Shown: in pieces, positions 30,092 to 64,000 of the stretch
How positions within the stretch are numbered: the stretch's first letter is position 1
Layout: every line of letters starts with the position of its first letter
DNA from: Geosiphon pyriformis uo1
Taxonomy: Eukaryota; Fungi; Glomeromycota
NCBI GenBank assembly: GCA_016748015.1
Contig: JAAOMT010000512.1
Location: 1,374,893-1,438,892, forward strand
Direction of reading: 5' to 3'
Length of the DNA stretch: 64,000 bases
Notes under the pieces: model-generated
The model's input: only the letters and a program-made list of their open reading frames with translations
Databases searched by the model: none
What the model was told of the DNA's origin: nothing
Made by a program: the position numbers and the translations under genes

Positions 30092-30132
30092 ATAAATGCA
30101 CCATTCCCAAAACAGAGGTATCTTCAATCGAC

Positions 30133-30786
30133 ATGAACAATTATTTCTTGGATCAAAACATTCAAAATGCTTTCTATACTTTCCATGAGTACTGAATCAA
30201 AAACTATCCAAATGTTACTCTGACTATCAGAAAACAAACCACCATAACAGATAACAGTGGAACTCACACTGTTATCAGACCAAAGAAAACAACTACCAGA
30301 AGAGAAAGAATTGGTGGCAAAATGGATAAATACCTGCTGGAAAGCATAACAGCAGCGATACTTTCATCTTCCAGCACAATTGGAAAAATGATACAAGAAA
30401 TCTTGCCCATAGACAAAAACTTGTCATATGGAAGACAACTAAAACTCTATGGTCGTCTTGGTGAAATCATAGAAGACATGAAGTTTATGAAGAAAACAAC
30501 TTCAGAGATACAAGGGGAAATTTTGATTATATGATTGGATGTCCCAAGAGTTTTGATCATTGCTAAAAGAGCCAGAACTCTTATACAAAGATTTGGTCTC
30601 TTGGATACAAAACTTATTTCACCTCAAGTATTATATACCCTATCCACAAAAGACTTCAACAAACTAGTTAGTTTTGAGTTAGACAAAACCCTTTACATAG
30701 ACTATCCCATAAATAGCTTGATTTCACTGGAGCTCAATCTCTTTGGAGAGGATAATGTTATGGTTGAAACTCATAGTTTTTATTAG
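30133..30786 (+). pseudogene. Element B ORF3, unknown function, runs through the PPT into the 3' LTR
   Basis: A single frame MNNYFLDQNIQNAF...KLYGRLGE...AKRARTLI...ISPQVLYTLSTKDFNKLV with two TGA stops compatible with CGA>TGA. Confidence 0.7.
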
Positions 30787-32784
30787 TTATCACATGTATT
30801 AGCCACTGATGTTATATAATTAGCCACCCTATTTTTAGATAGTGATTGTTGACCTGATCAATGACCTGATCATTGACCTGATCATTAACCTGATCGTTGA
30901 CCTGGTCATTAATCACTTTAGATAGCTATATAAGCAATGATTCCCTTAGCTATAGAAAAACATGATCAAAGTAATGAAATAAACAATATTAATTACTTCC
31001 TCTCATAATCGCTTATTCCCCTTTCCTTACCTTTAAGTATCTACTTGTTGGTATTTACATACCTTATCTTTTCCCTTTCTTGATTTGTATTTGTTAGAAT
31101 TAGTCTGAAAAACAATTGGCTTGCTCTTGTAATTCATTGAATAAAGAAACGATTGAAAAGCACAACAATACCTGTTATTGATTCTAAGAATTGCCAAGTT
31201 GAGGCATAAAATAATAGCAATAGTGTTATCTTGTTGACAATTATGGACTATTTTTCTACCTTCAAATTTAAGAAAAGATTAGTGATTGTGATTTTTATGA
31301 GACTGATCACACACATTGAATTCCTACTTATTCAATTTGCTCTCTTATTGTAATTCCCTCTTTGTTTATTTCCATTACCATACAATACTGTTCTCCCTTG
31401 CTATCCATTAGCTTGTTACTCCAACCCATAACAATAGGAAGGTCTTGGTTATTAATTTTGTTTTTTTGCTTCTAATGCTCTTGCTATATATACATAATTT
31501 AGGTTCTATGAAATCACTTACATTCTTAAGCAATGTGTTATAATTTTTTAAGCAATATGCTCACATGCTAACTACTACTTTCCTATTGGTCTATTTGTTT
31601 TTCTACTATTTTCTTTTATATATTTTTTTTATGAATAACATTATCTTCTCCTTTTAATATTAAGCTTTGTCAAAATCTTCACTTTAAATTAAGTCTAATA
31701 CTTCTTTTTTTAATACTGTTTGTTTAACTTTGTTTTTTATATTTTCAATTTGTACATTGTTTATTCTTCCCTATTGGTTAATGTTGATTGTCTCCATGTT
31801 GGGATGTAACAATATTTCTGGATAATTTTAAAATATCATGTATAATCAATAGATTTGTTTTCTTTCTAATAATATTTTCAATATTTTGTATTATTTCTTG
31901 ATTGAATATTCTTTTGGTTTTATCAAAATATAATTTCTGAATGTTCAACTTTTGTCCTAACTGATAGTAACAATATAGTATTAGAAGTTGTTCTGTTCAT
32001 TGTTTCTAATTATCTTTTGAAAGTTTTTTTGTTAGAATTATAATGGGTATTTTCCCAAATGTGTTCTTTACTTTTTCTACTATTTTATCTGACCAGTTTT
32101 TTAATTGTTTTTGTAGTCACTGGTATGGTATACTTTTTCTTTTTGTTTGGTGTTTTGATAGCAGATTGTTAGGTGGTTGATATTAATTTTCATGTTTAAT
32201 TACTGTTAACCTAAGGTCTGAAACAATTGTTGAACTAAGGTGTGAATATAATCTGGTATTTCCATTTTCTTTGTTGCTTTTGTCACATATACTGTGTTTT
32301 TATATACTTTTTTAGTTGTTCAATTTGACATGTTTGGTTCAATAATTATGATTGGTTTTAGATCTTATGGAATCTCATTTGGTTTGACTAGTATTTGTTG
32401 TACTCCCAGTTGTGGAATATTATTGGTACAGTGAACTCTCTTTATAATTACACATTTTGGTCAGCACATTTATGATGATTATAGAGAGATGAGATTATAA
32501 AAAATAATTAATATCTTATCACATGATTTATATATTACATATATAATATAATAACCAATTATAAATATTTTATTTAAAAAAGCTATCTATTTGCAACTGT
32601 TTTTTCTCTTCTTGAACTTTGAGAACAGTATTATGAATTAATGTTCTCAAAGTTTTAAAAAACTCTGAATCAACTTTTTTACTATATTGCTCTTCACAAT
32701 AGCACAATATATCTTCAAGTGCAGTTTTATCTTAATGTGTAGATAGCAAAGACAAAAATTCATTTTCATTTTCACTTTCTAAAT

Positions 32785-33246
32785 CTAATTCATTGCCCCA
32801 GAATCTTCCATATTAGCCACCTTTTAATACAATTTGACAGCTTGATCCATGTTCTGATTAACACATTTGCCATTAAAGTAGCAATGTCCTAATCAAGTCA
32901 TTGCTTCAAAATTTCTTACATCACTTGCTTTTTGATACAATTTGACAGCTTGATTCATGTTTTAATTGACACTTTTACCATATTGATAGCAACAACTTAA
33001 TTGAGTTATTGCTTCAGAATTCTCTGCATTAACAGCCTTTTGATATAATTCAACCTCTTGACTTTTGTTCTAATCAATACCTTTATCATGCTAATAGCAA
33101 TAACTTAAATTGTTCATTGTAGTAAAATTCTCTACATCATTTGTCTTTTAATATAATTTAACAGCTTAATCCATGTTCTGATTAACATCTTTGCTGTGAA
33201 AGTAGCAATTTCCTAATTTATCTATTGCTACAGAGTTTCCAGCATT
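32785..33246 (-). pseudogene. Sel1-like repeat (SLR) protein pseudogene, four 36-aa repeats
   Basis: One frame: NAGNSVAIDKLGNCYFHSKDVNQNMD*AVKLY*K...LSYCY*HDKGID*N...ELYQKA...LSCCYQYGKSVN*NMNQAVKLYQKA...LGHCYFNGKCVNQNMDQAVKLY*K. The 108-bp periodicity matches the Sel1 consensus (A...LG.CY..G.GV..D...A..LY.KA). Confidence 0.88.
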
Positions 33247-35585
33247 TAAACAGAATGGATGATGAAAATCTTATTCGAGATTTTTACATTTTTAAAAAAT
33301 ACCTCCAAACAGCCACAACAATTAACATGACAATAATAATTCAGTTTGCTGTTACTCATATAAAAAAAACAGATATAGAAAAATAGTAGACCAATAAAAA
33401 AGTAGTAGTTAGCATATAAGCATATCACTCAGCAATGTAGAACAATGTCAAGAAAATATGGCATATTGCTCAGCAATGTGAGCATTGCTTAAGAAATTAT
33501 AGCACATCACTCAAGAATGTGAGCAATCTCATAGAACCCAAATTATGTATATATAGTGATAGCATTAGAAGTAAAAAAAGACAGATCTTTCTATGTAGAT
33601 TTCATCTAAGTGACCTTCTACTTCACAAATATCAATAAATAATTATTCTCTATCTCAAATTTACTCTCCACTATCAACACTTTATGTTGATAATAATTGA
33701 TACTTAAACATACTGAAACAACAGCTCTTAATCATGGCTATTGATGGAATACTAACTTGCAATTGCTTTTACTTACTTCTTTTATTTTCTTTTATTTTAT
33801 TATTTCTTTGTTTGACTAATCAATTAAAGATTAAGCACTGAGTTATTGACATCAAGAATAGCCTGGTAAAAGACCCTAAAAAAAGGGTATAAAAATTATA
33901 TATATTAACAGATAGCTTACCAAAAGAGCATCTCTGCCAAGATTACTGGCCACTATGCTAAGAAAGAAACTTGACAGAATTGCAATTCTGAGAGACTATT
34001 GAAAAGACAGCAATTAAATCTTTCTATTATACAAAAGATTCAACTAAAATCTTCAGACACAAACAACACTTTCTAATATCTCCAAGCAGAACAATCAATT
34101 GAGCACCAAGTTACAGGTTTGTTATTTGATTTAAGACCCCAAATAATCACTTGTAACATTTGGTGTTTCCTGTAAGATATAATCCTATTGAGAATGGCAC
34201 CACTAACAATCATTCAAAAGTGGCAGAATCAGAAATTATAGAGACAAATCATTTAGGATTTGCCAAATTCTTATTTCAATAGTACAGCTAACAATTAGGA
34301 CTAACCAACAACCATTATTCAGCAGAATCCACTTTTAACTTTTACATCAACAAAAAGATCACAAACTGTTTAAGAGGAATAGTTGACATTGAATTAGCAA
34401 GAAAAAACTTTTACACAAAATTATTTCAACACACCAACTTACCAAGAAACTACAGTTTCACACAAATTATCAGGGAAATCAATCAAACTATTAAAAGGTA
34501 CACCCAACAACAATTTTCTATCACATACACAGACAAAGGCAAAGAAAGATTGCAAACCCCAGCAGTAACACCCAAAACAATACAACCACCCACTTGAAAG
34601 AAAAACAGAGTTGAATCACCAACAAACCCATTATACCACTATACACTCGGAAGCACAATCAACATCATATCAACAGGCATGTCCACATTAACCACGACAT
34701 CCACATTTAGATGATTTTCATTTCAGAGTAAACAAAGGAAAAAAAATCTTCTAGGACTATATGGCACATATTTTGAAGAATTTAAGTTATGGTTGCCAAT
34801 GCCATCAGGACTTTGATCCCTGCCACCCCAACCAGATTTCAAAACCACAAGTCTCTGAAAAGTAACAAAATTGGAGAAAAAACAGAAAGAAGAGAAAGAA
34901 AAATCTGAATATCAAGAATTTACTTACCAAAACCTGATTCCAGAAAACCTGGAAATTAAAACCCCAAACTTTCAAACTCAGCAAAATCTAAACTTAGAAA
35001 ATCCAGAAATCGGAACTCCGAATATTCAAATACTGCCAAATTAAGACAATCCAAACCCTGAGTTAATTAATCAGCAAAACTTATCTTCAGTAATTATCAT
35101 TGATTAGCCACTAGTTAAACCAATCCAACTGCAACAAATACTACTACAACAATTACAACAGCTGCTTCAACAGCCGCAACAACAACTTTAACAACCAAAC
35201 TTGGATCCAAAAGCCTATGTTCTAATAGCAAAACTTGAGAAATTCACTGGTGAAAAAGACAATGCCCAAATATGGCTTAACGACGTTGAAAAAGCCATTG
35301 TGGCCAACAGATAGAATGACCCAAGAGCACTCCAAGCCATTTTTTATTTCTTATAGGATACCGCCAACTTATGATATCAAAGTTTAGTTGCCAAACTCCA
35401 AACATTCCAGGAATTTAAAATCACATTCTTAGGATACTTCAGTAATAATAATAGCATTAACCAATTGGCAAACACTTTCACCACCATTAAACAAGAAGAA
35501 AATGAAGCAGTCACTACTTACTTAAGACACTTTCACAAAAATTTGTGCCAAATTCAGACCATATAGGCTGATTATTTCACAGTGC

Positions 35586-36572
35586 TGTTACCAGATAAAA
35601 TTAGAGATATTATTTAGCATAAAATTACTCTTATAATTTCTATTATTAATTAGCACATATTATCATTTCAATTTACCATTTATTATATTATCAAAATATT
35701 CGAAATTATTATTTAATTAATAAATCAACTTGTACAGAACACAAATGTAACTTAATTGCGATGATCAATTATGCAATACCCCAAACTATGTAACATTTAA
35801 GAATTCGCTGAAATTTGTAGAAATTCCCCGAAATAATTGATAGTTTACTGAAATATTCAATAGTTCGCAGAAATAACTTGTAGTTCACCAAAATGTAGCT
35901 TTAGTTCAGTGAAATTGTAGAAAAAAAACAAAGTTCAAGTTCATAGAATAGAGTTATGACAAGTTGTATAAAAAAAGAGCTTCTCTCTTTGAGAAAATGT
36001 ATCTTACTTTTAGATTTAGTAATTAGAATCATTTCTATACACACAAAAACAAAATAAATATTAAATAAATTTGAAAAATCAAATTCTCAATTATTTTCCT
36101 TGAAATTAACCAATTTCTACCAACAGTTTGAAATTGACTAGCTACCAATTTCAGTAAACTGTTAAAGCACTTCCAGGCCTAGATCTGAAACAACTTCCAT
36201 AAATTATTTCACTTTGCTTTTACATTTTTTTTATTTTTATTTTTTTATTTTTCTTTTTATAAATCATTAGAGTAGCCTACAGACGAGAATTCCTGTAGAA
36301 GAGTTGACTTTCACAGTAAAATAACTACACATTTTAGTGAGCTTCCAGACAAGCAATTTCTGGAAAAGAGTTGATGTTTACTACAATGTAACTACACAAG
36401 TAACTGGCATGGAATTGGCCATTCCACTTATAAGCCCAGTAGTTCAAATTATAGAAGATAATTTGAAGATAAATTCAGTTACTGGAGGTTCAACCACATC
36501 CAAAAAATGTGAATTCATAACAAACAGGCATCAACAACATTTAAAAAAAGAGACCAAAAATCTCCGGTAACA
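35586..36572 (+). mobile_element. Solo LTR (family Y) inserted in the gag of element C; TSD GTGC
   Basis: TGTTACCAG...GGTAACA, with GTGC at 35582-85 and 36573-76. Homologous to the LTRs of E and F. Confidence 0.95.
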
Positions 36573-38573
36573 GTGCCACAAATTCTAAATCAATTCATTA
36601 AAGACCTGTGTAGTAGCATCCTCCAACACATGCACCCAATGCATTCAATAGACCTTTAAGCCACAGTTACAAATGTTAAAAATTTTGAAGCCACTGAACT
36701 CAAAGCTAACCATGCTCAAGCCATTAATCTGGTAATAAATAGATCATCTAAATTGGATTCCAAATTGAAACAATTTAGTGATTCTATCAATCAGAAATTA
36801 GAGGAATACTTAGCTAACAATTGCACAATTTATCAACCACCACAATGATGCAACAATTCCGGAAATGCAAATCATTTCCAGAATCAATTGCATTCAACAT
36901 CTTTAATCAATCAACAATGACAGCAGGAGATGCATGCTTGCCACTATTGTGGTAAACAAGAATATTTACAGTTTGAATGCTGTAAATGGCTAAATGAACA
37001 AAGATCAGGCCATCAGTATTGAAACTCTGATTGCCAACTACAAACTCAGAATTATGTCAGTAATCAATTACCAAAAATATATTAACCAAATTATCTACCT
37101 ATGACACCACAGCCAATCTATCAACCACCAATTTATCAGCCAACAACACTCATCATTTATCAGCCACAGTCTCAGATAATTTATTAGCTCCAACAAATTC
37201 AAGCACTACCACAGAACTTACCTTAAAATAGAACCCAAAGACCAAGACTGACACAATAAAGCTGGAGATTGTTGATGATCATCTATCAACCAATTCTCAG
37301 TTCCTCGAACCAGCCATCAAGATCTCGACAATAGAATCCAGGCACTGGGAACTCTCAAAACCCAAATTCCCAACACTATTTAAGTCTTCTGGTCTTCCCA
37401 GAAAACACCCAACCCAATAACCTAGAAACCAATTAACAACTAACCTTTACCAGTAACATTCCACTAGCTACCATCACCAAGAACAAATTACTGAATGCCA
37501 TCTTCCCATTTGAACTCAAAAAACTGTCGATCATACCGTTATTTAGTGGAGCCACTCTAGAAGAAAAACTTATTATCACCATGTACACTGATGCCAAAGT
37601 TAATGGCCACTTTATCAAACAGATCCTAGACAGTGGATCAGCTGGTAACATCATTACAAAACAACTTATGAACCAATTAGGTTATCAAGTTGATCACACT
37701 GCTAGTGCCAGGATTATAACCACTGTTACTCATAAAAATATAGGGAATATATATTAGCATAGTTATTAACCAATCAGAAGTAGACATAGTAAAATGTGGA
37801 ATTTCAGAATTCCTTTCAAGAATTGCAAGATTTCAGGAATTACAAGATTTTCACAAGGAATCACAGGATTTCAGAATTCCAAGATTTTTTTCAAAGAAAT
37901 TGCAAGATTCCAGAAATCTCAGGATTCTTGTTGTGAAGAATTGAGGAATTGAGGAATCTTATAGCAGTAGAATTAGAAGCTAAAAAGACAGACCTCTAAG
38001 TTTAGATTTCATTTAGACAACCTTCCAAACACAATAAATAACTATTTGGTATCTCAAACTTAATTCCACTATTAACACTCTATGTTGATAGTAATTGATA
38101 ATTAAACACATTGGAACAATAGCTCTTGATCATGACTATTGACAAGATACTGACTTGCAAAATCATCTTGGCTTATTTATGATTTTCTTTTATTTCTTTT
38201 CTTTATTTTATTTTGATTTTATTGTTGTGCACTAATTGGTTGAATAAAGTGCTAGATTACTGATGTCAGAAATTGCTTGGTAAAAAACCCCTGCGAGAGG
38301 GTAGGACATGTACAAAAGATACAGAATACTTACCAGAGGATTGCTGGCCATTACGCTGAGAAAAGAATTGACAGAATTGTGATTCTGGGAAGCTACAGAT
38401 AAAACAACTATTGAATCTCTGTCCATTATACAAAAAACTTAATCTGAAACCTTCAGATACAAAACCTTTAGATACAAAACCTTCAAATTAATAATATCAA
38501 TGCAAATAACTTTTAGCACCAAGTTACAGGTTTGTTATTTAATTTAACACCCTAAATAATCACTTGTAACATT

Positions 38574-38590
38574 TGGTGCTCCCTGTGAGG
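38574..38590 (+). promoter_or_regulatory. Primer-binding site of element D, probably for elongator tRNA-Met
   Basis: TGGTGCTCCCTGTGAGG lies 2 nt after the LTR and is complementary to a tRNA 3' end ...CCUCACAGGGAGCACCA. A decayed copy, TGGTGTTTCCTGTAAGA, is at 34161 in element C. Confidence 0.7.
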
Positions 38591-41500
38591 TATAATCCTA
38601 CAGAGAACCAGCACCAACAACCCCATCCAAAAGTGGCAAAATCAGAAAACATTGGAGCAAACTATCTAGGATTCACAAAATTCTTATTTCAACATTACTG
38701 TCAACATTTGGGATTAATCCATAATTACATATTAGCAGAATCAGCTTTCAATTTCTACGTTAATGAAAGAATTGCCTATCTATTAAGAACATTTGTGAAT
38801 ATTGAATCAGTAAGAGAAACTTTTTACAATGAATTAATTCAAAACACCAGCCTATCCACAAATCATAATTTCACATCTATCATTACTGAGATCAACAAAG
38901 AAATTGAACACCATATACAACAAAGATACCCAATTACTTACACAAGTAAAAGCAAAGAAAAACTACAAACACCAGCAGTAACATCTCAAAGGATACAACC
39001 ATCCACTTGGAAAAAAACTAGAGTTGAGTCTTCAAACAATCCATCTTACCACTATACTCCTGGAAGTGCCATCAATATATCATCAACAGACGCATCTACA
39101 TCAAACACAACATTAGCATTTGAACGTTTCTTATTTTAAAATAAACAAAGAAAAGAGGATCTACTAGAACCATACAGTGAGTATTTTAAAGGATTTAAAT
39201 CTTGATTACCGATGTTATCAGGATTTCAATCACTGTCATCTCAACCAAATTTTGTAATCGCGAGTCCTTGGGAAATTACTGAATTGGAAGGAGAACAAGA
39301 AGTAGAAAAGAAAGAAAAATCTGAGGATCAAGAATTTACTTACCAAAACCCAATCTTAGAAAACCCAGAAATTGAAACCCTAAACTTTTAAACCCAGCCC
39401 AATTTAGACAATTCAGAAAATAACACTCTAAATATTCAAACCCCACCAAATCAGAACAATCCAAACCCCAAAGTAATTAATCAACACTTACTTCCAGTTA
39501 TCGTCATCGACCAATCACTCATTGAACCAATTGGCCAGCCCATTCAACTACCGAATCAACAAAATCAACAACCATCACCAGTACTGTCCCAACAACAACA
39601 ATAACTTCTACTACCACAGCAACAACAAATAGCTTATGCACCCATTGCAAAACTCAACAAATTCAATAGTAAAGAAGATGACGTCCAAGTCTGGTTAAAT
39701 GACATGGCCAAAGCCATTACAGCCAATAATTGGGATGATGCTAGAGCAATGCAAGCAATCTCTTATTTTCTCCAGAATACCACTAATGCATGGTATCAAA
39801 GCCTTGCTATCAAACCCCAAAATTTTAATGGATTCAAAACTGAATTCTTGCAGTACTTTAGTAACAATAATAGTATCAACAAATTAGCCAACACCTTTAC
39901 AACTATCAGACAAGGAGACACTGAAGCAGTCACTACCTACTTGGGATGCTTCCATAGAAATCTATGCCAAATACAAGCCATTCAAGCTGACTATTTTACA
40001 GTGCCACAGATTTTAAATCAATTTATTAGAGGATTGCGCAGTAGCATCCTACAACGAGTACGTTTAATGCACCCAGTGGACCTTCCAATTACAGTCACAT
40101 ACATCAGAGATTTTGAAGCAGCTGAACTAGAAGCTAATCATGCTCAAGCTGTGAATCTAGCAATGAATGGATCATCTGAATTGGATTCCAAATTGAAGTA
40201 ATTTAGTAATTCAATTAATCAGAAATTAGAGGGATACTTAGCTGACAATCACATGATTTATCAACCTCCTCAACAGTGTAACAATTAGGAAAACGCAAAT
40301 TGTTTCCAAAATCAGTCACGTTTATTGTTATCATCCAATTAGTCATGGCAGCCAGAGATGCATATCTGCCACAACTGTGGTAAACAAGGACACATCAGAG
40401 CCAACTGCCATACTTATAGCAATCTATGACTGGAAAATCAATATAAAAACCCCAATCGCAGGTTCCAGACTCCGAACCATCACCTAAATCAAGACCAATA
40501 CCAATCCACTTACCTGCCTATAATGCACCAACTAATTTATCAACTGCCAGTTTATCAACTGCCATCACAAGCAATTTATCAGGTGCAGTCACAAGTAATA
40601 TATTAACCACAGCTACCAGCAATCTATCAAACACTCACCATTTAAATGTCATCAGTAAACCCAGCTCAAATGACATTAGGGAACCCAAAATTGAGGATCA
40701 CCCAAAACTGGAGATTGGTGATGGTTGTCCACCAACTAATCCCCAGCTCATCAACCTCACCATCAGGGTTGCAATCTCAGAATTCAGGCACCAGTCACAC
40801 CCAGAACCCAAATTTCCAGAACTATTTAAGTCTTATAGTGACCCCAAAAGACACCAAACCCAATCATCCAGAAAACAACCAACAACCACCACTCATCAGC
40901 AACATTCTATCAGCAATATTTACCAAAAACAAAACTCTTGCTGCCATCTTTCCTTTTGAATTAGAGGAAACTGTCAACCCACTGTTGTTCAGTGGAGCAG
41001 CACTTGAGAAAAAACCCATTACTGTGATGTACACTGATGCGAAAGTTAATGGGCACTCCATCAAACTGATCCTAGATAGTGGATCAGCTGGCAGCATCAT
41101 CACAAAACAACTCATGAACCAATTAGGTTGCCAAGTTGATTGCGCTGCCAGTGCAAGAATTATCATTGCTGATAGAGCTACCAAAACTCCAATTGGCAAA
41201 ATAGATGACTTCCCCATCGAAATCAATGGTATCACAATACCCATCAAAGTTCTGGTGATGAAAGCCACTTAGTATCAAGCACTTATTGGCAATGATTGGT
41301 TATCCAAAACCAATACAATACTCAACAAGACCACCCAAGAACTCCAACTCAGCCAAAATGACTGACACACACGAGTCTCAGCAACATGTGGCTATTTCAA
41401 ACTCAGCAATGTCAGAACAACAACACCACTTATTGAATTTGAGAAGGAAGAAAACAAACCAATATGGGAAGTGTATTAAGTATTATGGGCCGATGTCGAC

Positions 41501-44500
41501 CACAATGAACTGCTATCAATACTTTCCTGAGACAATAATGACAACGAGAAAAAAAAACAAAGAGCAGAACTTATCTGGAAAACAGATAACCTGACTTGGA
41601 CCAATAATGACAAACTGACATCAAGCTAAAAATGGGAAGAAAGCAAAGAAAACAATAAAGGGAAGGGAAAAGAAGAAGAAACAACACTTACTGACACCTC
41701 TATTCATAACTTACACACCTATCCATCACCACCAACTAATTATCATTGACCAAAGCTAATATGTGTCGATTGCGGCAAGAAATTGTTGTCAATTGGCGCA
41801 TGCTGTGGTGACAATGAAGAATATTCAATGGCCACCAGATTCTACTGCCACACATGCATCATAGAGTGCTTTGGATGACCGAAACAACAAGAAAAGTGGA
41901 ACAATCAACCATGTCTCACATGTAGAACTATTTTATCTGATGAAGAAATATAGAATGACATTTTGGGCAGGGAGGAACATGTGATGAGACATACCAGTAC
42001 ACTATCTTGATAAACAACTGGGTATGCAAGAGAACACTAATTGATGACACATGGAAAAGAGCACTATAACAATTGAAAAAATATCCCCATGATGAACATG
42101 AACTTTGGAGAATGGCATATGCAAAAGTAGAAGGCATGACAACCAGCGAATTACTGGAAATAAAAAACAATCTTTTATCTTTTTCTGAAACCGAATACAT
42201 CCAAACTTCCAACATCTTTGGTAACATTGAGGATGACCTAAAAAAATTCCACAAACATTACCAGCAATTAGCATCCACAATAGAAAAGCAAAAACAATGC
42301 TTGGAAAAAATAAACACTCAATTATGTGACCACTGTTTAATTCCATGTGACTTCCAATATTGTAATGAGTGTGACCTTATTTACAATCCATCACCACACA
42401 TGATCTACATAATCTCAGAGAAAGAGAAACCAATCAGCAGCTGTGCATTAGAATCAGAATTGATTTTTAATCCCAATTCAAACTCCGACAATAATAACAA
42501 CAAAAACACTGGTTTCAGTTTCATCCAATATGGTGATAACAATGACAACAATTCCAACTCAGATTTAAATCCTGATCCAGACTATGAACAATATATTGCA
42601 CTCCCTGATCTCGCCAAGAAACAGGAACTTAAATGGTTCAGTAATAATAATAAAGGTATTATGCCAGAATAGGCACATGATACCGATGTTAGGTTTGATC
42701 TGAGATATCCAAGAAAAGAGGCCATCCAATTGGAACCACATTCACATATCTGCTGTTACCAGAGGTTTTTGGTCTCTTTTCTGTAATGTTGTTGATACTT
42801 ATTTGCTGTGAATTCATGTTTTCTGGATGTGGTTGAACCTCCAGTAACTGAATTTATCTTCAAATTATCTCCTATAATTTGAACTGCTGGACTTATAAGT
42901 GGAATGGCCAATTCTTTGCCAGTTACTTTATGTAGTTACATTGTAGTAAATGTCAACTCTTTCCCAGGAATTGCTCATCTAGAAGCTTACTAAAAATGTG
43001 TAGTTACTTTGCTGTGAAAGTCAATTCTTCTACAGGAATCTCATCTGCAAGCTATCTTAATGATTGTAATAAGAAAAATAAAAGAAAATAAAAGAAATGT
43101 AAAAGAAATAGAATTTTGTCAAGGGAAACGTTTTCTATTTAGGCCTGGAGTTACTAACAGTTTACTGAAATTGGTAGCTAATCAATTTCGAAATGTTAGT
43201 TGGGTTTTGGGGATTTTCTAAGTACAATAATTAAAGAATTTGGTTTTTCGAATTATTTGATATTTATTTTTTTTTGTGTGTATAGCAACAGTTTTAAGAG
43301 ATAAATCTAAAGTAAGATACATTTTCTCGAAGAGAGAAGCTCTTTTTTTATACAACTTGTCATAACACTATTCTATGAACTTGAACTTTGCTATTTTCTA
43401 CAATTTTGCTGAACTAAAGATACATTTCGGCGAACTACAAGTTATTTCTGCAAACTATTAGATATTTCAGTGAACTATCAATTATTTCGGCAAATTTCTA
43501 TAAATTTCGGCAAACTTTTGAATATTACATAGTTTGGGGTATTGCATGATTGATTATCACAATTAAGTTACATTTGTGTTGTGTACAATTTGGGTTATTA
43601 ATTAAATGATAATTTCGGACATTCTTTGCTAATATATGCTAATTAATAATAGGAATTATGAGATAGTTTCATGCTAAATGATATCTCTAATTTCGTCTGG
43701 TAACATAACCTCCTCCTCAAGACTGAGCTCCATCAATGTCCAAGTACTGTTTGTTATTTCCAGATAATAATCCAAAATTATTGAAGAAATTTGGTCTGAA
43801 AATTGTTGAAATTTCAGTTCTGTGAGCTTTCCAATGTATTGAATCTTCAAAGGTTGAAAAATTGGGTTTTGTAGTACATTTTCACAGGTGTGAAATAAGT
43901 CATAAAGTCTAAGAGCAGCTCTAAGCCTATAGCGACTGTTTGTTAATCCAGTTGTTGTCTTGAATTCGTTGTGGAGTTGTTTCTGAATAGCTTCTTTTAT
44001 GAGGTTTGCTGTTGTAAGTTCCAGTTTCCGTTCGTAGAGTGTTTTTCCAATGTGAAAATATCTATAGATTGGAGGATATTCAATGTTTTTCTCATTGAGA
44101 CGCAGTTGAAGTTTTTGTTAACTTGTAACATTTGGTGGAATACTAATTGGAGTGAGCATTAGGTTTTCTCTTAAAGCAAGCTTTAAAAGTTCTGGCAGGT
44201 GAATTCCAGTATAACTTCTTGTGTTCTTTTTATACGGGTGATATTTTCGTGAATTTGGGGCTAAATTTGTAACTACTTCTGTTTGGGTATAATTTATGTG
44301 GTTTCCAGTAACAGTAATGGATAATTCGGGTATTGTTTTTAAAGCTAACATTAGTTTTTGGAATAATTGTTGAATGTTTTAAGGAATAGTCATTATAAGC
44401 ACTTGAAAAAATAAAAATTTATTTTTGGTTTATGGGTTTTTATGTTATTTTTGTTTTGTTTTTGTGAGATTGTTCTAAATTATAAGAGAATAACTAGTAA

Positions 44501-52066: not shown

Positions 52067-52186
52067 TTTCGCTGAACTAAAGATACATTTCGGCGAACTA
52101 CAAGTTATTTCTGCGAACTATTAGATATTTCGGTGAACTATCAATTATTTTGGCAAATTTCTATAAATTTCGGCGAACTTTTGAAT
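52067..52186. repeat. About 20-bp tandem array in the family Y LTR (core ATTTCGGCGAACT)
   Basis: Five to six consecutive units. Also present at ~43405-43520, ~35800-35915 (reverse) and ~63270-63370. Confidence 0.85.
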
Positions 52187-54593
52187 GTTACATAGTTTGG
52201 GGTATTGCATGATTAATCATCGCAATTAGGTTACATTTGTGTTGTGTACAATTTGGATTATTAATTAAATGATAATTTCGGACATTCTTTGCTAATGTAA
52301 TAAGTGATAATTTGAAACAATAATATATGCTAATTAATGATAGAAATTATGAGATAGTTTCATGCTAAATGATATTTCTAATTTCGTCTGGTAACACTGC
52401 ATTGATTTGAAAATAGCACTGGAAATTTTGGCAACAACAATGGTTCAATTAGTATCTAGGAGTAGTTTAGCAAAAAGAGGGATAAATATAAGAGGAGGAA
52501 TAATTAATATGAGATATATAAGAAATATCATCACCATGCTACAAAATAACTTAGAAAAGGCCTATATCATAGAGCCAAACAAAAAGATAGCACAAGCAAT
52601 CTTCCTGCCTCTGGTTAAAGTAGCTCAATTAGTATCAGTGGGAAACAAAAAAGAACTAGGGATAACAGCAAGAGGGATACAGGGATTTGGATCCACAAGT
52701 AGAATAGATATACCAGTCAATATGGTGAAGGAAAAAATTATTGGCCAAGGAGAAATTATCTCAACCAGTCAAACAATTTCTATTTCACCATATAGCAGAT
52801 ATATGTTAGCAATAAAAAGGAGAGAGAAGATGCAAGAACAGATTTTTGAAGCAAAAACAACCCTTTGTGAATCAGGAGAAATTGGACTTATCAATTTACA
52901 CATACCAGCCAAGAGCCATAACCATATCAAAATTCCCATCTACAACAACACTGGAAATGTTGTAGAGATACTGGAAAGAACTACTCTCGGATATTAACCA
53001 CGGAAATTGAAGATCAAGTACCAAGCAGCATTCCAGATTTTCCACAGCTTTGTGGATATGTAGACATTACATCACAAACTATCTATAGACAAAACGAGTG
53101 TTATCTGTTACAGCCAGAACAATTGAAACAGATAAACATAGAAAATCTAGACTCACTTCAACAGATGCAACTAAAGATGTTACTCAATAATTTCAATGAC
53201 ATCTTCACCAGTGAAAACAAATTTGGCAGAACTGATATTATCCAGCATCAGATCAAGACTGAAGATACAATGCCAATTAAACAGTAAGCATATAGGGTAC
53301 CACCAGCCAGCTATAAAATCATTTGTTAAGAGATCAACCGAATACTTGACAATGGGTTAATTTAGCCATCAATGAGCCCATGATCATTACCAATAGTACT
53401 TATCTGTAAAAAGAATAGAAAAATCCGATTTTGTGTAGACTACAGGAAACTCAATGGTGTAACTCATGGAGACAACTATCCAACTCCATGGATACAAGAA
53501 CTATTCAATACTTTCGGTGGAAACAAATGGTTCTCAATGTTAGACTTGGATAGTGGTTACTGGCAAGTAGCCATGAATCCAGCCAACAAAAAAAAAATGG
53601 CATTCACTACAAGAGAGGGAAACTTTGAGTTTGAAGTTATGCTATTCAGCTTAATCAACACTCCAGTTACATTTCAATAGCTAATGAAAATTGTGTACCC
53701 CAGCTTATTGTGAAAATCAGTAGTTGTATACTTGGATGACACCAATATGTTCTCAAAAACATTTGATAATTATCTACATTATCTCCAACAAGTGTTCGAA
53801 AGACTACGATGAGCAGGATTAAAATTGAATGCAACAAAGTGTTTTTTCAGCAAAACAGAACTAAAATTCTTGGGACACATAGTTAGCAAAGATGGCATAA
53901 AAACAGATTCAGAGAAAATAGAGATAGTAAAGAACTTTCCAATACCAACCAACGTAACCGAACTGAAATCATTTTTGGGATTCATGAGTTATTATAGATG
54001 CTTCATAAAGAATTTTTCAAAGATAGCACAACCACTTAATGATCTTCAAACCAAAAATGCAAAGTATAAATGGACTGAAACCCAGCAAGAAGCATTTGAC
54101 ATCTTAAGAAAAAAGCTTATTCAAGCTTCAGTATTGATCTATCCAGATCATAGTAAACTATTCATTATTACCACTGATGCATTAGATCAAGTATTGGGAG
54201 CAGTACTATCTCAGAAAAGATTGGATGAAAGAGAACATCCAGTCACATATGCCAACCAAGGTTTGACTCCAGCCAAAAAGAACTATGGAACACCAGAATT
54301 AGAACATCTAGCAATTTATTGGGCAGTTATGAAATGGAAAAAATACTTGAGCCAAAAGTTTGAGGTGTACACAGATCACAAAAGATTGACATCACTCCAA
54401 AAACAAAAATTTGGAAATGGAAGACAGTTAAGATGGAAAATGGCTTTTTCGACATATACTTATACCATATATTATAAAAAGGGAAAAGACAACGGAAATG
54501 CCAATGGTTTGTTGCGAATGAAACAAATCTAAGAATATTTCAACCCAAAAATATAACAAAACCAAAACAATACTTATGAAAATATAACAAAAG

Positions 54594-55977
54594 ATGAACA
54601 CACAAAAATATTAACAACTTCAACATTATATAGATACTCAACAGTTCAAGAAGAAATTATCTCAACCAGAACAAAAGAGAATCAAACAACAATCCAAATA
54701 TTTTATCACTCACCAAAATATACTTTATCAGAAAAATAGAAAAGATTCAGATCAACCAACCAGAGTAATTACAGAACCAGAAAAGAAGACAATACTGTTC
54801 AATATGCACTCAGATTTAACTGCAGGACATTTTCATAAAGAAGCAACCATAGAAAGAACCAGAAAAAGATACTATTGGCCATCAATGTATTCAGACATCA
54901 TCCAATATGTGCAAAATTATAATGCTTGTCAAAGAAGAGAAAAAACAAAACCCAGCAAACCATTGAGACCAATCAAAGTGAGACAACCATTTGACCGTAT
55001 TGGAATTGATTTAGTTAGATTATTGACAATTACCAGCAGAGGCAACAGATATATTGCAGTAGTCATAGACTATCTTATTAAATGGCCAGAAGCCAAAGCA
55101 ATTCAAAGAGCAGATACAGAATCTATTGCCAAATTCGTCCATCAAGATCTGATTTGTCAACATGGATGTCCAAAAGAATTATTATCAGACCAAGGAATCC
55201 ATTTTGTAAATAGAACATTAGCAGAACTAAGCCAAAGATTCGGAATTAAGAGACCACTATTATTATCATATCATCCACAAACCAATGGATTAGTTGAAAG
55301 ATTTAATAGAACATAGTGTGAAGCAATAACAAAACTCAGCCAAGAAAATCAGGATGAATAGAATTTGTTCATACCATCAGTATTATTTGCTTATTGGACA
55401 ATGAAGCAAGACACCACACAAGCAACACTATTTAAATTGATATATAATAGAACAGCAACATTACCAGTTGAGATAGAGGTTAATACATATCCAACTGAAC
55501 CAATAACAGAAGAGAATTTCCAAAAAACATTGTTAAGAAGAACATATGACTTAATGGAAACATTGGAAAACAAACAAAAAAGAACAGCTGATAACATACA
55601 AAAGTCACAAAAGAAACAGAAAGAAAGACATAATAATCAACTACCAGACAAACCAGTTGAATTCAAGAATTGGAGACAAAGTACTCTTATATCGTACCAA
55701 AGTGGAAAAACAATGAAGTGGAAAATTTGACCCCAAATGGGATGGACCATTTCACATAGAAAAAATTCTAGGAAATGGAGCTTACAAATTAAGACTGGAT
55801 AACAAAATCTTAACCAAAACAGCACATAAAGATCGACTAAAACCATACCACAACATCACACCATCATCTACCAGTAATATTCCACAATTAGGAGTACAGA
55901 AGATACTAGTCCAACCAGAGGAGATTCCATGAAATTTGAAACCAATCATTATCATTAACAATAACATGTTAAATTAA
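54594..55977 (+). pseudogene. Element D stand-alone integrase ORF
   Basis: ATG lies 61 nt after the pol stop and in a different frame. HSDLTAGHF...ACQ...IGIDLV...DYLIKW...SDQG...YHPQTNGLVERFN...KWDGPF. Confidence 0.88.
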
Positions 55978-56001
55978 TCCATCAAAAAAATATATAAAGA
56001 C

Positions 56002-56661
56002 ATGGTAAATGTAACAAGAAATATTAGAAAAATAGAAATTACAGACAACATCTACTCACTAGCACAACAACTTTTTCAATTAATTCAATACCAAGAGATA
56101 GAAATTACAATTAATCAACAAACCATCTAATATCAAGACACTAGAAAGACATTGCCACATAAAACACAGAAGAAAACAGAAAATACTATTGACAAAATTA
56201 TTGTGAAAGTAAAATTAGCAATAAAAAAGTTGACAAAAGAGTCACTATACCAAGAGTTAACTAAAGAAACTTGGAATTGGTGGATATAACAATTTCCAAG
56301 AAACTATTGTTATTTTTACTTGGGACAACATGTGAATATCCAGAATCTATATACAGATAAAACAAAGCAATAATTCGACACAAAAATACTACAACAATTA
56401 GAACATTTTTTGGGAAAAAACAACTTATCTACACAGGCCTGAGCCATATACCGAATACACACAGCATTTCAGGATCAACCAGAAATCTTACTCAACAAAG
56501 CAATGAATACAGTTATCAGTAATAAATTAGAAAAAATCACCAACACTCAATTTGAAGAATTACAGACTTAAATAACACAAGTAATTCTCAAAAATGAAAT
56601 TCAGAAAATACTTTAAGAAGGAGAATTAACAGAGTTAGATTTCAATGGAGCTCAATATTAA
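56002..56661 (+). pseudogene. Element D ORF3, about 220 aa, unknown function
   Basis: A single frame from ATG 56002 to ELDFNGAQY* just before the PPT. Internal stops are all TAA/TGA compatible with CAA/CGA deamination. Confidence 0.72.
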
Positions 56662-59600
56662 AAGGAGGGAATAATATTACTCATAGAAATATAAGAAATA
56701 TATATTAGCATAGTTATTAACCAATCAAAAGTAGACATAGTAAAATATGGAATTCCAGGATTCCTTTCAGGAATTGCAGGATTCCAGGAATTCCAAAATT
56801 CCTGTTGTGAAGAATTGAGGAATTGAGGAATCTTAATTATGTATATATAACAGTAGGATTAGAAGCTAAAAAGACAGACCTTCAAGTTTAGATTTTATCT
56901 AGACAATCTTTCAAACACAATAAATAACTATTTAGTATCTCAAACTTAATTCCACTATTAACACTCCATGTTGATAGTAATTGATACTTAAACACACTAA
57001 AACAATAGCTCTTGATCATGGCTATTGATGGGATACTGACTTGCAAAATTGCCTTGGCTTATTTATGATTTTTTTTTATTTCTTTTCTTTATTTTATTTT
57101 GATTTTATTGTTGTACACTAATTGGTTGAATAAAGCACTAGATTACTGACATCAAAAATTGCCTGGTAAAAGACCCCTGTGAGAGGGTAAGACATGTACA
57201 AAAGATATGGAATACTTACCAGAGGATTGCCAGCCATTACACCAAGAGAAGAATTGACAGAATTGTAATTCTGGGAAGCTATGGATAAAACAACTATTGA
57301 ATCTCTGTCCATTATACAAAAAACTCAACCCAAAACCTTCAGATACAAAACCTTCAGATACAAAATCTTCAGATTAATAACATCAACGCAAAAAACTTTT
57401 AGCACCAAATTACAGGTTTGTTATTTGATTCAACACCCTAAATAATCACTCGTAATACTGCTGATGGAGCAACCAAAACTCTTATTAGTGAAATTGACGA
57501 CTTTTCTATCAAAGCCAATAGTATTATTGTCCCAATCAAAGTATTAGTCATGGAAGCCACCCAATACCAAGCACTCGTTGGTAATAATTGGCTATTCAAA
57601 ATCAATGCATTGCTTGATTAGAATACGCAGGAGCTTCAAATTAGCCAGAATGGCCAACACACACATGTACCAACTACATGTGGCCATTTCAAGACCACCA
57701 ACTCAACAACACCACTCATCAAGTTTGAGGAAAAAAAGAAGAAACCTACCTGAGAAGCCTATCAAGTGTTATGAACTGAAGAAGACCACAACAAGTTACC
57801 ACTAATACTCTCTTGGGACGATAATGGAAATGGAAAAAAAAAGGAAAAACTTATTTGGAACACCAACCAAGACTGAGAAACTAACAATGACTCAAACAAA
57901 CTACCAAACTGAGAATAAGAAGAAACTGACAAAAAAAAAGAAGGAAGAAGATCTAACCAAAGAAACAACTGCTACAGAAGAAATAACTAGTAACTGAGAA
58001 AAAAACTACTCATAGGAACTGATAAAAGAGCCACCATATATATTCCTTAAATATAAAGACTGTGGAAAAAAACTTTCTTTCATGAGAGCTTGGGTCATGC
58101 CAGATGAAGATTACTAAATGCAAACCCATTATTATTGCAAGCCATGCCACTGCAAATGCTATGGCTATCCAAAAAGACAAGACAAGTAGGACAATGAACT
58201 ATGTCTCGCTTGCAGTAAACAACTACTGGATGAAGGAATGTGGAACAACATTCCTGGACGAGGAGGAACATGCAATGCTTTATGCCAATATACAATCTTC
58301 ATCAGTAATTGGATGAGTTATGATATGCCAATAACTGCTGTCTGGCACTGTGTGATATCTCACTTGGACAGTTACCCACATAATAAAGACAAAATCTGGT
58401 GGATGACAAATGCCAAAGTAGAAAGTACCACACTTAGCAAAATATTAGAAATCAAGAATAACTTTCCAAAACCAGTCAATATTGTTTTGATTCCCAATCT
58501 AAATGCTTTCCTGAACCTGGAAACAGACCCAGAAGAATTTCATAAGCACTACCAAAATTTGGCACCAACAAGAAAGGAACAAGAGCAGCATTTAGCCCAA
58601 ATAAACACCTGACTATGTGACCATTGTTTGATCCCATGTGACTTTCAATATTGTAATGAGTGTAACCTTATTTACAATTTACCACCATGCATAATCTACA
58701 CAATTTCAGAGGAAGAACCAATTAGCAGCTGCACATTAGAATTAGAACCAACTTTTAATCCTGATTCAAACTTTGACAACGATGACAACAAAAATAACAG
58801 TTTTAGCTCTGTTCAATGTGGCAATGAAAAATATAACAATTTGAACTCCGATTCAAACCCCAAAACATATATCACACTCCCTAATCTTACCAAGGAACAG
58901 GAACTTAAATGGTTCAGCAATAATAATGAAAGTATTATGCCAGAACGTGCACACAATACTAATGCAGGGTTTGATCTAAGATATCCAGGGAAAAATGCCA
59001 TCAAATTGGAATCACATTTACACACATGCATTGATCTCAAAGTAACACTAGAAATTCCAGCAACAACAATGGTTCAATTAGCATCTAGGAGTAGTTTGGC
59101 AAAAAAGGGAATCAATATTAGAGAAGGAATAATTGACACAAGATATATAAGAAATATTATTACTATGCTACAAAATGATTCAGAAAAAACCTATATCATA
59201 AAGCTAAGTGAAAAGATAGCACAGGCAATATTCCTGCCTCTGGTAAAAGTAGCTCAATTAGTATCAGTAGGAAACAGAGAAAAATTAGGGATTACAGATA
59301 GAGAGATACAGAGTTTTAGATCAATGAGTAGAATAGATATACTAGTTAATATGGCAGAGGAAGAAATTATTAACAAAGGAGAAATTATCTCAACTCATCA
59401 ATCAATTTCTATTCCACCATATGACCAGTATATGTTAGCCATAAAAAAAGAAATAAAGAATCAAGCTCAGTTGTTTAAAACAGAAGCTACTATTTGTGAA
59501 TCAGGAGAAATTGGACTCACTAATCTCTACCTATTAGCCAAAAGCCCTAAAAACATCAAAATTCTCATCTACATCACAACTGGAAATGTTATTGAGATAC

Positions 59601-62600
59601 CAAAAGAATTCATCATCGGATATTTAACCACCAAAGGGAAGAATCAACCACCAAACCACATTTCAGATTTCCCACAGCTTTGCAGATATGTGGATATTAC
59701 ATCACAAACCATTTATGGACAAAGCAAATGTTATCTGCTCCAATTAGAACAATTGGAACAAATAAATTTGGGAAACTTAGACCCACTTCAATGAATGCAA
59801 CTCAAGATGTTGCTCAACAATTTCAATGACATCTTTGCCAGTGAAAATAAATTTGGCAGAACTAACATAATCCAGCACCAGATCAAGACTAAAAATACAA
59901 TGCCAATAAAACAAAAAGCATATAGAGTATTACCAGCCAGCCATGAAATCATTCGTCAAGAAATTAATTAGATGCTTGACAATGGGCTAATTCAGTCATC
60001 AATAAGTCCATGGTTATCACCAGTGGTATTAGTCTGGAAGAAGAATAGAAAAATCTATTTCTGTGTAAATTATTGAAAACTGAATGGAGTAATCAAAGGT
60101 GATAGTTATTCAACTCTAAAGATCCAAGAACTATTTGATGCTTTTGGAGGAAATAAATGGTTCTCGACACTAGATTTAGATAGTGGTTACTAACAAGTAG
60201 CCATGAATTCAGCCGACAAAAAGAAAACAGTATTTACCACAAAAGAGAGAAATTTTGAGTTTGAAGTCATGCCATTTGGCTTGATAAACACCCCAGCAAC
60301 ATTTCAACAGCTTATGGAAATTGTCTATACTGGATTACTATAGAAATTAGTAGTCGTATACTTGAATGACACCAATGTGTTCTCAAAAACATTTAATGAT
60401 CATCTGCATCATCTTCAACAAATGTTTAAAAGATTAAGAAGAGCCGGATTGAAACTAAATGCAACTAAATGTTTCTTTGAAAAAACTGAACTCAAGTTTT
60501 TGGAACATGTGGTAAGCAAAGATGGAATCAAAACGAATCCAAACAAAATTGAAATTGTTAAAAACTTTCCAGTACCAAATAATCTCACAAAATTGAGAGC
60601 ATTTTTGGGATTTGCTAAATACTACCACCACTTCATTAAAGACTTTTCCAAAATAGCTCAACCACTACATCAGCTTAAAACAAAAAACACCAAATATGAA
60701 TGGACAGAAACCCAACAAAAAGCTTTTGATACATTAAGAAGAAAGCTTATTCAAGCCCCAGTACTGATCTATCCAAATTATAGTAAGTCATTCATAATTA
60801 CAACTGATGCATCTGATCAAGCATTGGGAGCAGTACTATCACAGAAAGAATCAGATGGAGAGAACATTTAGTAGCTTACATCAGTAGAAGCTTAAGTTCA
60901 GTAGAAAAAAACTATAGAACTCCAGCACTAAAACACTTAGCTATCTATTGGGCTGTCATCAAATGAAAAAAATACTTGAGTCAAAAGTTTGATGTATATA
61001 CTGATCACAAAGGATTAACTTTAATTCAGAAACAAAAATTTGGAGATGATCGCCATGTCAGATAGAAAATAGAACTTTCATCATTTAATTATACAGTACA
61101 TTACAAAAAAGAAAAAAACAATGAAAATGCTGACAGATTGTCATAAATGAGACAAATTTAAAAACATTTCAACCCAAAAATATAACAAAAGATGAATATA
61201 CAAAAATACCAACAACTCTAATATTATATAAATACCCAATTGTTCAAGAAAAAATTATCTCAAAAAGAATAAAACAACATAAAACAGCAATCAAAACATT
61301 TTATCAACCATCAAAATATACTTTATTGGAAAAACAAAAAAAATCCAGACCAACCAACCAGAGTAATTACAGAACCAGAAAAAGAGACAATATTATTTAA
61401 CATATACTCAGACCCAACAGCAAAACATTTTTATAAAGAAGCAATCATGAAAAGAACCAGAAAAAAATACTATTGGCTATCAATATATCCAGACATCATT
61501 CAGTATATTCAAAATTGTGATGTTTGTTAGAGAAGAGGAGGAACAACACCCAGTAAATCATTAAGACTAATCAAAGTGGGACAACTATTCGATCATGTTA
61601 GAATTGACTTAATCAAACCATTAACAATCACCAGCAGAGGCAACAGATATATTGCAGTAGCCATGGACTATCTCACTAAATGGCCAGAGGCAAAAGCTAT
61701 TCAAAGAGCAGATGCAGAATCCGTTGCCAAATTTGTTCATCAAGATTTGATCTGTCAGCATGGATGTCCAAAAGAACTACTATCAGATCAAGGAACCCAC
61801 TTTGTGAACAGAACATTGACAGAATTAAGTCAAAGATTTGGAATTAAAAGACCATTATTATTATTATACCATCTACAAATGAATGGCTTAGTTAAAAGAT
61901 TTAATAGAACACTGTGTGAAACAATCACAAAAATCAGCCAAAAAAATCAAGAGGAATGAGATTTGTTTATACCATCAGTATTATTTGCTTATTGGACAAT
62001 AAAGCAAGATACCACACAAACAACACCATTTAAATTGGTATACGGTAGAACAGCAACATTACTAGTTGAGATAAAAGTCAATATATATCCAACTGAACAA
62101 TAACAGAAGATAATTTCCAAGAAACATTGTTGAGAAAAACATATAACTTAATGGAAACACTAGAAAACAGATAACGAAAAGCAGCTGATAACATCTAAAA
62201 GTCACAAAAAAAGCAAAAAGAATGATATGATAATCAACTACCAAATAAACTGGTTAAATTCAAGATTGAAGACAAAGTACTATTATATTATACCAAAGTG
62301 GAAAAACAATGGAGTGGAAAATTTGACCCCAAATGGGATAGACCATTTTACATAGAAGAAATTCTAAGAAATGGAGCTTATAAATTAAGATAAAACAACA
62401 AAATTTTAGCCAAAGCAGCATATAGTAATTGACTGAAACCATATTACCAGATAGTATCATCATCCACCAATAACATTCCACAATTAGAAGTACAAAGAAT
62501 ATTAGTTCAACCAGATGAGATTCCACAAGATCTGGAACTAATCATAGTTATTGAACCAAACACATCAAATTGAACAACCAAAAGAGTATATAAAGACACA

Positions 62601-62610
62601 TTACATGTGA

Positions 62611-64000
62611 TGTTATCAGAGGTTTTTGGTCTCTTTTCTTGAATATTGTAACTGTCTGTTGGTTGCAAATTCACGTTTTCTAGAAGTAGTTGAACCTCCA
62701 ATAACTGAATTTATCTTCAAATTATCCCTTATAATTTGAACTGCTGGACTTATGAGTGGAATGGCCAATTCTCTGTCAGTTACTTTATGTAGTTACTTTG
62801 TAGTAAACATCAACTCTTTCCCAGAAATTGCTCGTCTGGAAGCTCACTAAAAATGTGTAGTTACTTTGCTGTGAAAGTCAACTCTTCTACAGGAATCTTA
62901 TCTGTAGGCTATCCTAATGATTGTAATAAAAAAAGAAAATAAAATAAAAAAAATGTAAAAGAAATAGGATTTTATCAAGGAAAACGTTTTCTATTCAGGC
63001 CTGGAGTCACTAACAGATTACTGAAATTGGTAGCTAATCAATTTCAAAATGTTAGTTGTGTTGAGGGAATTTCAAGTGTAATAATTTTAAAGATTTGGTT
63101 TTTGAATATTTTAATTTTTATTTGATTTTGTAAAAAAAGGTGATTTGTTCTAATTAAGATATTTTAAGTAAGTTACTATGGTAAGATACATTTTCTTAAA
63201 GAGAAAAGCTCTTCTTTTATACAACTTGTTGTAGTACTAGTCTATGAACTTGCACTTTTTCTCTTTGCTCAAATTTCAGCAAACTAAAGATATATTTTGA
63301 TAGACTACAAGTTATTTCACTGAACTATTGATTAATTTGGGTGAGCTATTCATAATTTCGGCAAATTTTAGAATGTTACAAAGTTCAGGGTATTGTGTAA
63401 TTTGATCATCTTACTTTCTGTTATACTAATTGAATTATTTAATTGAATTATGATATGTGATAATTGATTAAATAATAAATGATAATTTGAAATGATATTA
63501 ATATACTAATTAATTATAGGAATTATAAGAGTAATTTTTATGCCAATTAATAGCTAAAATTCTACTGGTAATATAATCTTCTCTCCAGACTGAGCTTTGT
63601 CAAAGTCCAAGCACTATCTGTAATATTGAGATAGTGATCCAAAATAATTGAAGTAACCTGGTCTGAAAATTGTTGAAATTTCAGTTCTGTGAGTTTGCTA
63701 ATATATTGGACTTTCATTGGTTGCAGTATTGGATTTTGTAGAACATTTTCACAAGTATTAAACAAATCATAGAGTCTAAAAGCTGTTCTAAGTTTGTAGT
63801 AAGTGTTTGTTGGTCCAGCTGCTGTTTTGAATTGATTGTGAATTTGCTTTTGTATAGCTTTAGGAGTGAGATTTGTTGCTTCAAGTTCCAGTTTTCGTTC
63901 ATAAAGTGTGTTTCCAATGTGAAAGTATTTATATATAGAGGTGTGTTCATTGTTCTGTTCATTGAAAAGTAATAGAAGTTTTTGTTGTATTGTAGCATTT
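62611..64000 (-). mobile_element. Gypsy element F (family Y): 3' LTR 62611-63573, PPT and part of ORF3; inserted just after the integrase of C; continues beyond the window
   Basis: The LTR is homologous to 42754-43705. ORF 63562-63765 (CENVLQNPILQPMKVQYISKLTELKFQQFSDQ) matches ORF3 of element E. Confidence 0.9.

Follow-up and report, generated by a model that had tools for sequence, protein, structure and literature searches.

The 64-kb window of the Geosiphon pyriformis genome analyzed here (64,000 nucleotides of contig JAAOMT010000512.1; all positions are those of the window) contains five copies of an open reading frame, hereafter ORF3, located downstream of the integrase gene in long terminal repeat (LTR) retrotransposons of the Ty3/Gypsy type. 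The carrier elements are B, of a family devoid of dUTPase, D and the truncated element A, of a family termed X, and E and F, of a family termed Y. ORF3 of B (30133..30786, plus strand; 217 codons, two premature stops) crosses the polypurine tract (PPT) and ends within the 3′ LTR, as does that of E (43674..44393, minus strand; 239 codons, two premature stops). ORF3 of D (56002..56661, plus strand; 219 codons, six premature stops) has its stop codon abutting the PPT, and that of A (31654..32265, minus strand), which carries two frameshifts near 32150 and 31860 and several stops, ends directly before it. Only the 3′ part of ORF3 of F (63562..64000, minus strand) is present; it is open at the window edge, 68% identical to E, and ends within the 3′ LTR. 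All five copies are in sense orientation directly behind the integrase C-terminus (5/5), and a sixth, in an outer X-type element, had its start severed by the insertion of F at 62610/62611. The original prediction, made from the DNA letters, had placed five frames of ~220 amino acids in the env position of B, A, E, D and F, largely hidden by C>T stops. The frames are indeed there, that of A being best placed at 32265-31654; every protein motif it quoted was found in the ORF3 translations; and, upon comparison with family residues, nine of the ten premature stops in B, E and D were compatible with C>T or G>A changes.

Upstream of ORF3 in B, D and E, Pfam matches followed the Ty3/Gypsy order of gag, protease, reverse transcriptase (RT), RNase H and integrase, with a dUTPase in D and E that is absent from B. 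Because the RT of B is 46-50% identical to the others and that of E 60-61% identical to those of the X elements, three lineages are involved. The 3′ boundary of ORF3 varies between them. Its stop codon lies 29-31 nt (B), 30-32 nt (E) or 10-12 nt (F) inside the 3′ LTR, the frame of E running across the PPT at 43718-43706 (minus strand), whereas the D and A frames stop at the PPT, which in D occupies 56660-56674 (plus strand). The proposed placement of ORF3 between integrase and PPT was thus accurate for D and A and too narrow for B, E and F, the frames of which pass the PPT and stop inside the LTR. The acidic tail of the B, E and F proteins is encoded by the purine-rich PPT. Just before the PPT, a DNA motif, RAGCTYART, was observed in 5/5 elements (window 30730, 43730, 63597, 56648 and 31667; in B, motif and PPT together span 30729..30755 on the plus strand, inside ORF3), and five of its six matches in the window are these pre-PPT sites. 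The motif translates to E-L-N/S in B, E and F but to G-A-Q-Y in D and A and, since the DNA is kept in all five copies across two different frames, this region is likely to be a cis element. No common RNA hairpin was found at the motif in 5/5 single folds.

Purifying selection acts on ORF3 as it does on pol. The ratio of non-synonymous to synonymous substitutions (dN/dS) was 0.26 between E and F (bootstrap confidence interval [CI] 0.16-0.42; 141 codons) and 0.46 between D and A (CI 0.28-0.73), neither value being near 1, with reference values of 0.31 for the integrase and 0.20 for the RT/RNase H region of two X elements. All of these values were obtained by counting in single pairs of sequences and include neutral decay after insertion. 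The other sense frames of the ORF3 region yielded 0.65-2.19 and more stops; one antisense frame gave 0.38 between E and F with 24 stops, and its counterpart in RT 0.44.

The X (D/A) and Y (E/F) proteins are proven homologous at the level of profile comparison (hhalign 92%, E 5.8e-7, 184 columns; Z 17.8 over shuffles), identity between families being 18-29%. The position of B is less firm. Every local profile test of B against X/Y was negative (hhalign 0.09-0.25%; hidden Markov model [HMM] scores within those of shuffles), and no full-length B-family protein occurred among the 117 matches of a combined X+Y profile. Global alignment with end gaps penalized gave Z 3.7-4.7 for B versus E and 1.6 for B versus D. 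Upon removal of the PPT-coded tail, B scored Z 3.6 against both E and a balanced profile, 5.5 against the metagenomic protein P0387 (the reversed control being raised as well, 100 versus 130) and 2.9 against the metagenomic protein P0386, whereas 5/5 decoys remained at Z ≤0.6; B was moreover collinear with P0387 from end to end. B thus probably carries a far-diverged member of the X/Y family, a kinship that we grade as probable rather than proven because the forced global test was selected after the local tests had failed. That the ORF3 of B is instead unrelated, with amphipathic helices in an equivalent position having produced the shared motifs by coincidence, is somewhat unlikely: the hhalign and HMM results, the lack of a full-length B-family protein among the profile matches and the low global score against D speak for it, while the tail-free global scores of 2.9-5.5 as opposed to those of the decoys, the collinearity with P0387 throughout and the identity in length, charge pattern and TATA spacing speak against it. 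This alternative concerns kinship and is independent of the functional ones discussed below. The claim that ORF3 is common to all three families was accordingly established for X and Y, with B failing local profile tests and passing forced global ones only. One protein, P0346, was considered as a link between B and D. Its matches to the two profiles fall in different regions of the sequence, and it was put down to a chimeric gene model; five further chimeric-looking rows (P0375, P0381, P0385, P0390 and P0394) were removed between alignments A5 and A6.

Protein searches at E ≤0.001 returned 203 of 494 candidates with the E query, 129 of 258 with B and 101 of 397 with D, 433 gene-model clusters in sum. 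All of the matches listed for the three queries (341/341) are hypothetical proteins of Geosiphon pyriformis. By length alone, 75/120 (E), 27/120 (B) and 9/101 (D) of the matches listed were full size, which is not proof of intact copies because gene models can bypass stops via predicted introns. Extra residues matching elsewhere in the window were carried by 65 of the 341 gene models listed, and since 46 of these 65 have integrase-region sequence before ORF3, the family sits behind integrase genome-wide. The combined X+Y profile collected 117 representatives at E ≤0.001, including further Geosiphon subfamilies at ~30-34% identity; for 27 of 101 new identifiers, identity to five Geosiphon references was below 50%. 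Among 100 new identifiers, 20 distant representatives were looked up, of which 17 were from Geosiphon and three were metagenomic proteins. No named arbuscular mycorrhizal (AM) fungus besides Geosiphon was found among the 341 listed matches and these 20 representatives so that, at the sensitivity reached, the notion of a widespread Glomeromycotina family found no support. The metagenomic relatives P0386, P0387 and P0445 (28-30% identity) retain the C-terminal peptide that E encodes by its PPT and LTR start, and for this reason probably reside in LTR elements of another organism. Scans of metagenome and viral contigs revealed no ORF3 relative, a phage tblastn search yielded a single weak match (E 0.4), and the best value in the ESM Atlas was 0.88, with none for D.

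The ORF3 proteins are 210-240 residues long, with an isoelectric point of 8.5-9.9 and 0-2 cysteines. In line with the proposal that they are not envelope proteins, no transmembrane stretch was apparent in 7/7 proteins (best 19-residue hydropathy 0.27-1.37), and, judged for a signal peptide by hydropathy only, the N-terminal 9-mer scored 0.2-1.6. An AlphaFold model built from 32 diverse rows (mean predicted local distance difference test [pLDDT] 73; predicted template modeling score [pTM] 0.62) shows a low-confidence N-terminus (helix 5-19, hairpin 24-37), a disordered basic linker (39-63) and a helical core (91-210) at pLDDT 81-94. The most basic 12-mer falls within the linker in 7/8 proteins. 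The core is the most conserved part, E and F subfamilies differing at 23 of 120 core columns as opposed to 14 of 25 linker columns; conserved positions are mainly hydrophobic, plus Y110, Y112, G116, N152, R162, F167 and N185, and no catalytic pattern was evident among them. Pfam gave nothing at gathering score for window and database copies. The best PDB match by sequence was importin-5, at E 0.015, which fell to 0.52 with a deeper profile, with none for B. Fold comparison, which relied on the second AlphaFold model (not one of B) and hardly covered the N-terminal 60 residues, singled out no structure in any library, peaking at Z 5.3 among 48,161 chains in VIA-align and at E 0.27 (PDB) and 0.14 (BFVD) in Foldseek. 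The first AlphaFold model (pLDDT 45) was set aside together with its fold matches. Likewise, DUF1016_N (PF17761) was matched by 7/51 members, with a best E of 0.015 and 12.9 bits for the first member versus a cut-off of 32.8; against a narrow YhcG-centred profile of 80 sequences, the hhalign score was 18.0 versus a shuffled maximum of 18.2 and a second comparison gave 0.8%, and this candidate was dropped. ORF3 is thus predicted to encode a soluble protein with an all-helical core of unplaced fold. As to the earlier suggestion of a helical, possibly helix-turn-helix (HTH) protein, the helical part agrees with the model, while the HTH is not established because it found no Pfam, PDB-sequence or fold match. 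Altogether, the evidence supports ORF3 as a real, selected, non-envelope, mainly helical accessory gene tied to Gypsy 3′ regions.

ORF3 does not form one continuous frame with integrase and has its own ATG. A TATA-like box lies 46 nt before the ATG of B (30087..30093, plus strand) and 39-41 nt before the ORF3 start of A (32298..32306, minus strand). The box of D (55991..55997, plus strand), in the integrase-ORF3 spacer, precedes the family's second Met position (56032) by 41 nt, and in the outer X-type element a TATA-like box is followed by the first bases of the ORF3 region (62587..62610, plus strand), which is interrupted there by the F insertion. As background, 11,291 positions were sampled across the element region, of which 2.3% had a TATAWAW 25-50 nt upstream, a distance window that was fixed after the boxes had been seen; in addition, the outer element is related to A and D, which are themselves related. 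The boxes suggest a putative internal promoter in front of ORF3 in B, D and A. E displays a T-rich, acceptor-like stretch ending in CAAG before the ATG.

The LTRs of the carriers bear tandem arrays that differ between families: a 12-bp array in B, a 20-bp array in E and GGAATT-rich repeats with a 17-bp array in D, each in the U3 region. In B, the 3′ LTR (matched part 30756..31195, plus strand; the 5′ LTR starts at 23877) has its array at 30849-30910, upstream of the TATA box of the LTR. The 3′ LTR of E (42754..43705, minus strand) contains its array at 43424-43516, which also occurs in the 5′ LTR at 52087-52179, and that of D (56675..57457, plus strand) has the GGAATT-rich repeats in U3, with the 17-bp array at 37814-37887 in the 5′ LTR. 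ORF3 of F ends inside the 3′ LTR of this element (63573-62611, minus strand); the LTR of A starts at 31640 (minus strand), its PPT being at 31653-31641. The LTR pairs of B, D and E are 4-9% diverged, and their 122 differences comprise 119 transitions and three transversions. CpG sites are the most affected (33/51), with other C contexts at 14-25%, which suggests that non-CG methylation or a process resembling repeat-induced point mutation (RIP) lies behind these differences.

The Ty3/Gypsy features present include paired LTRs, PPTs and, for E and a solo LTR, 4-bp target-site duplications. Nesting is deep between 33350 and 64000, where the outer X element contains the solo Y LTR (35586-36572), D (37724-57457, plus strand), itself holding E (52396-42754, minus strand; target-site duplication GCAG), and F at 62611. 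The 4-bp duplication of D, CCAC/CTGC, is accounted for by opposite-strand decay of one CpG. The dUTPase of the X and Y families, which B lacks, sits between protease and RT, with a Cys-rich stretch before it (47454-48185, 52395-52997 and 58613-59794), and the X family has an unassigned open frame after the primer-binding site and before the gag capsid match (38570-39139 and 34292-34597). No chromodomain was detected by Pfam on the integrases of the elements. Elsewhere in the window, the observed/expected CpG ratio is 0.7-1.0 up to about 18 kb, where it drops to 0.0-0.5; a 108-bp tandem repeat (32789-33239) reads on the minus strand as a decayed 36-residue repeat, which we take to be SEL1-like; and a 99% identical inverted duplication with 1661-nt arms (6518-10219) encloses a small gene for a His-rich product, the start of which resembles a signal peptide.

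On our analysis of these features, it is quite possible, if short of probable, that ORF3 is a trans-acting regulator of transcription from the LTR of its own element. A short subgenomic RNA would start at the TATA-like box behind integrase and end in the 3′ LTR; such a separate RNA, arising from an internal promoter or from splicing, would allow the ORF3 protein to be made independently of Gag-Pol. The basic linker could then bring the protein to the nucleus and to DNA, where it would bind the family-specific tandem arrays upstream of the LTR TATA box, and this binding may raise LTR transcription, possibly by counteracting cytosine methylation. A number of observations weigh against this proposal. 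E is devoid of a TATA-like box, that of B overlaps the integrase stop codon, and that of D fits the second Met only. The basic linker is the fastest-evolving part of the protein, the core has few conserved basic residues, and no known DNA-binding fold was found in the PDB, BFVD or VIA-align searches. The D family has a weak acidic tail or none (net charge -2 and +1), and the tail of B, E and F, being PPT-encoded, may be a by-product. Finally, the LTR arrays may be sites for host factors, and the kinship of B appears in forced alignments only.

Some of the same properties would suit an action on element RNA, whereby ORF3 would bind the genomic RNA and promote its stability, its packaging or its export from the nucleus, in the manner of CERV in Cer1 (PMC10309623). 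A basic, helical and soluble protein, the acceptor-like stretch before the ATG of E, a pre-PPT motif kept as DNA in all five copies and two frames in the manner of a cis element, and the CERV precedent itself all agree with this possibility; that no RNA-binding family or fold was matched and that the motif region folds without a common hairpin make it nonetheless rather unlikely. ORF3 might also target host proteins, such as a component of small-RNA or chromatin silencing, and bind no element sequences at all, a scenario compatible with a helical core lacking a known nucleic-acid-binding fold and with the very rapid divergence between families, but one that we regard as improbable given that no host-like domain was matched. 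A role as particle or integration cofactor, in which ORF3 binds Gag or integrase or directs insertion, would account for its invariable position adjoining the integrase C-terminus and would sit well with integrases lacking a detected chromodomain and with elements nested within each other; that ORF3 does not extend integrase but occupies a frame apart, with a start of its own preceded by a TATA-like box in B, D and A, renders this role quite improbable. As for ORF3 being envelope-like, or a frame carried along neutrally, occupancy of the env slot is what would be expected, yet the lack of a hydrophobic segment, the 0-2 cysteines and dN/dS values well below 1 largely refute it, and we hold it to be most improbable.

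Several of the features described here are already on record elsewhere, namely sense extra ORFs behind pol, extra ORFs and dUTPase in fungal Gypsy elements, and non-envelope accessory genes in animals. Vicient and Casacuberta 2020 (PMC7264820) have described aORF-3S, additional ORFs in sense orientation located between pol and the 3′ LTR, which resemble ORF3 in being found behind pol in many copies with a conservation about that of pol; the cases in the available portion of that paper are env-like frames of plants and insects with transmembrane domains, whereas ORF3 is fungal, without such domains, and extends into the LTR in three copies. Novikova et al. 2010 (PMC2864245) reported dUTPase domains and extra ORFs of unknown function from Gypsy elements of fungi. 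The extra ORF, and a dUTPase located between protease and RT as in X and Y, invite comparison at the level of description; Geosiphon is not mentioned in the main-text sections available. In animals, CERV of the Caenorhabditis elegans element Cer1, the mRNA of which is spliced, serves in the export of genomic RNA (PMC10309623), and the ORF3s of bdelloid LTR elements are non-env esterases or exonucleases (PMC5408684). Both cases concern, as here, LTR retrotransposons with non-envelope accessory genes, but none matched Geosiphon ORF3 in Pfam.

Two further systems offer functional models. The foamy-virus transactivator Tas is likewise the product of a small non-structural gene by the 3′ LTR, of about 250 residues, with an acidic C-terminus that is shared by two ORF3 families, and is driven by an internal promoter, the counterpart of which in ORF3 would be the predicted TATA-like box of B, D and A, not E (PMC4929722, as far as the text was available). 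The ORF3 elements differ in lacking env, and no sequence or fold match to Tas was found in Pfam or BFVD; Tas is used here as a functional model. VANDALs are plant DNA transposons. Their anti-silencing VANC proteins resemble ORF3 as element-encoded, family-divergent accessory proteins associated with family-specific non-coding tandem repeats, in heavily deaminated, CpG-poor copies (Hosaka et al. 2017, PMC5735166). No homology to ORF3 was found, and VANC too serves as a functional model only.

LTR elements make up 41.2% of the G. pyriformis genome according to a survey of AM-fungal transposons (PMC11952901), the available text of which makes no mention of an ORF3-like frame. No description of the ORF3 protein family was found among the publications listed by literature searches, the repeat library of PMC11952901 and the supplement of PMC2864245, both possibly relevant, being outside the scope of this search. 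At its broadest, our proposal would be that regulation in the style of complex retroviruses evolved independently in fungal Gypsy elements. All three lineages would then encode a transactivator or anti-silencing protein of unclassified helical fold, expressed from an internal promoter and sequence-specific, with every lineage having a version that fits the LTR array of its own, and this protein would have aided the LTR takeover of 41% of the Geosiphon genome; this we consider doubtful.

What the sequences do establish is an ORF3 gene proven in two lineages and probable in a third. Under selection similar to that on pol, it thus rides in at least two, and probably three, LTR-element lineages of Geosiphon. 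Since divergent LTR arrays are here paired with proteins that diverge as well, cross-binding can be tested directly. If true, a regulator encoded by retrotransposons of an early-diverging symbiotic fungus would account for the spread of the elements under heavy cytosine deamination. Finally, several hundred annotated 'hypothetical proteins' of Geosiphon are transposon genes rather than host genes.

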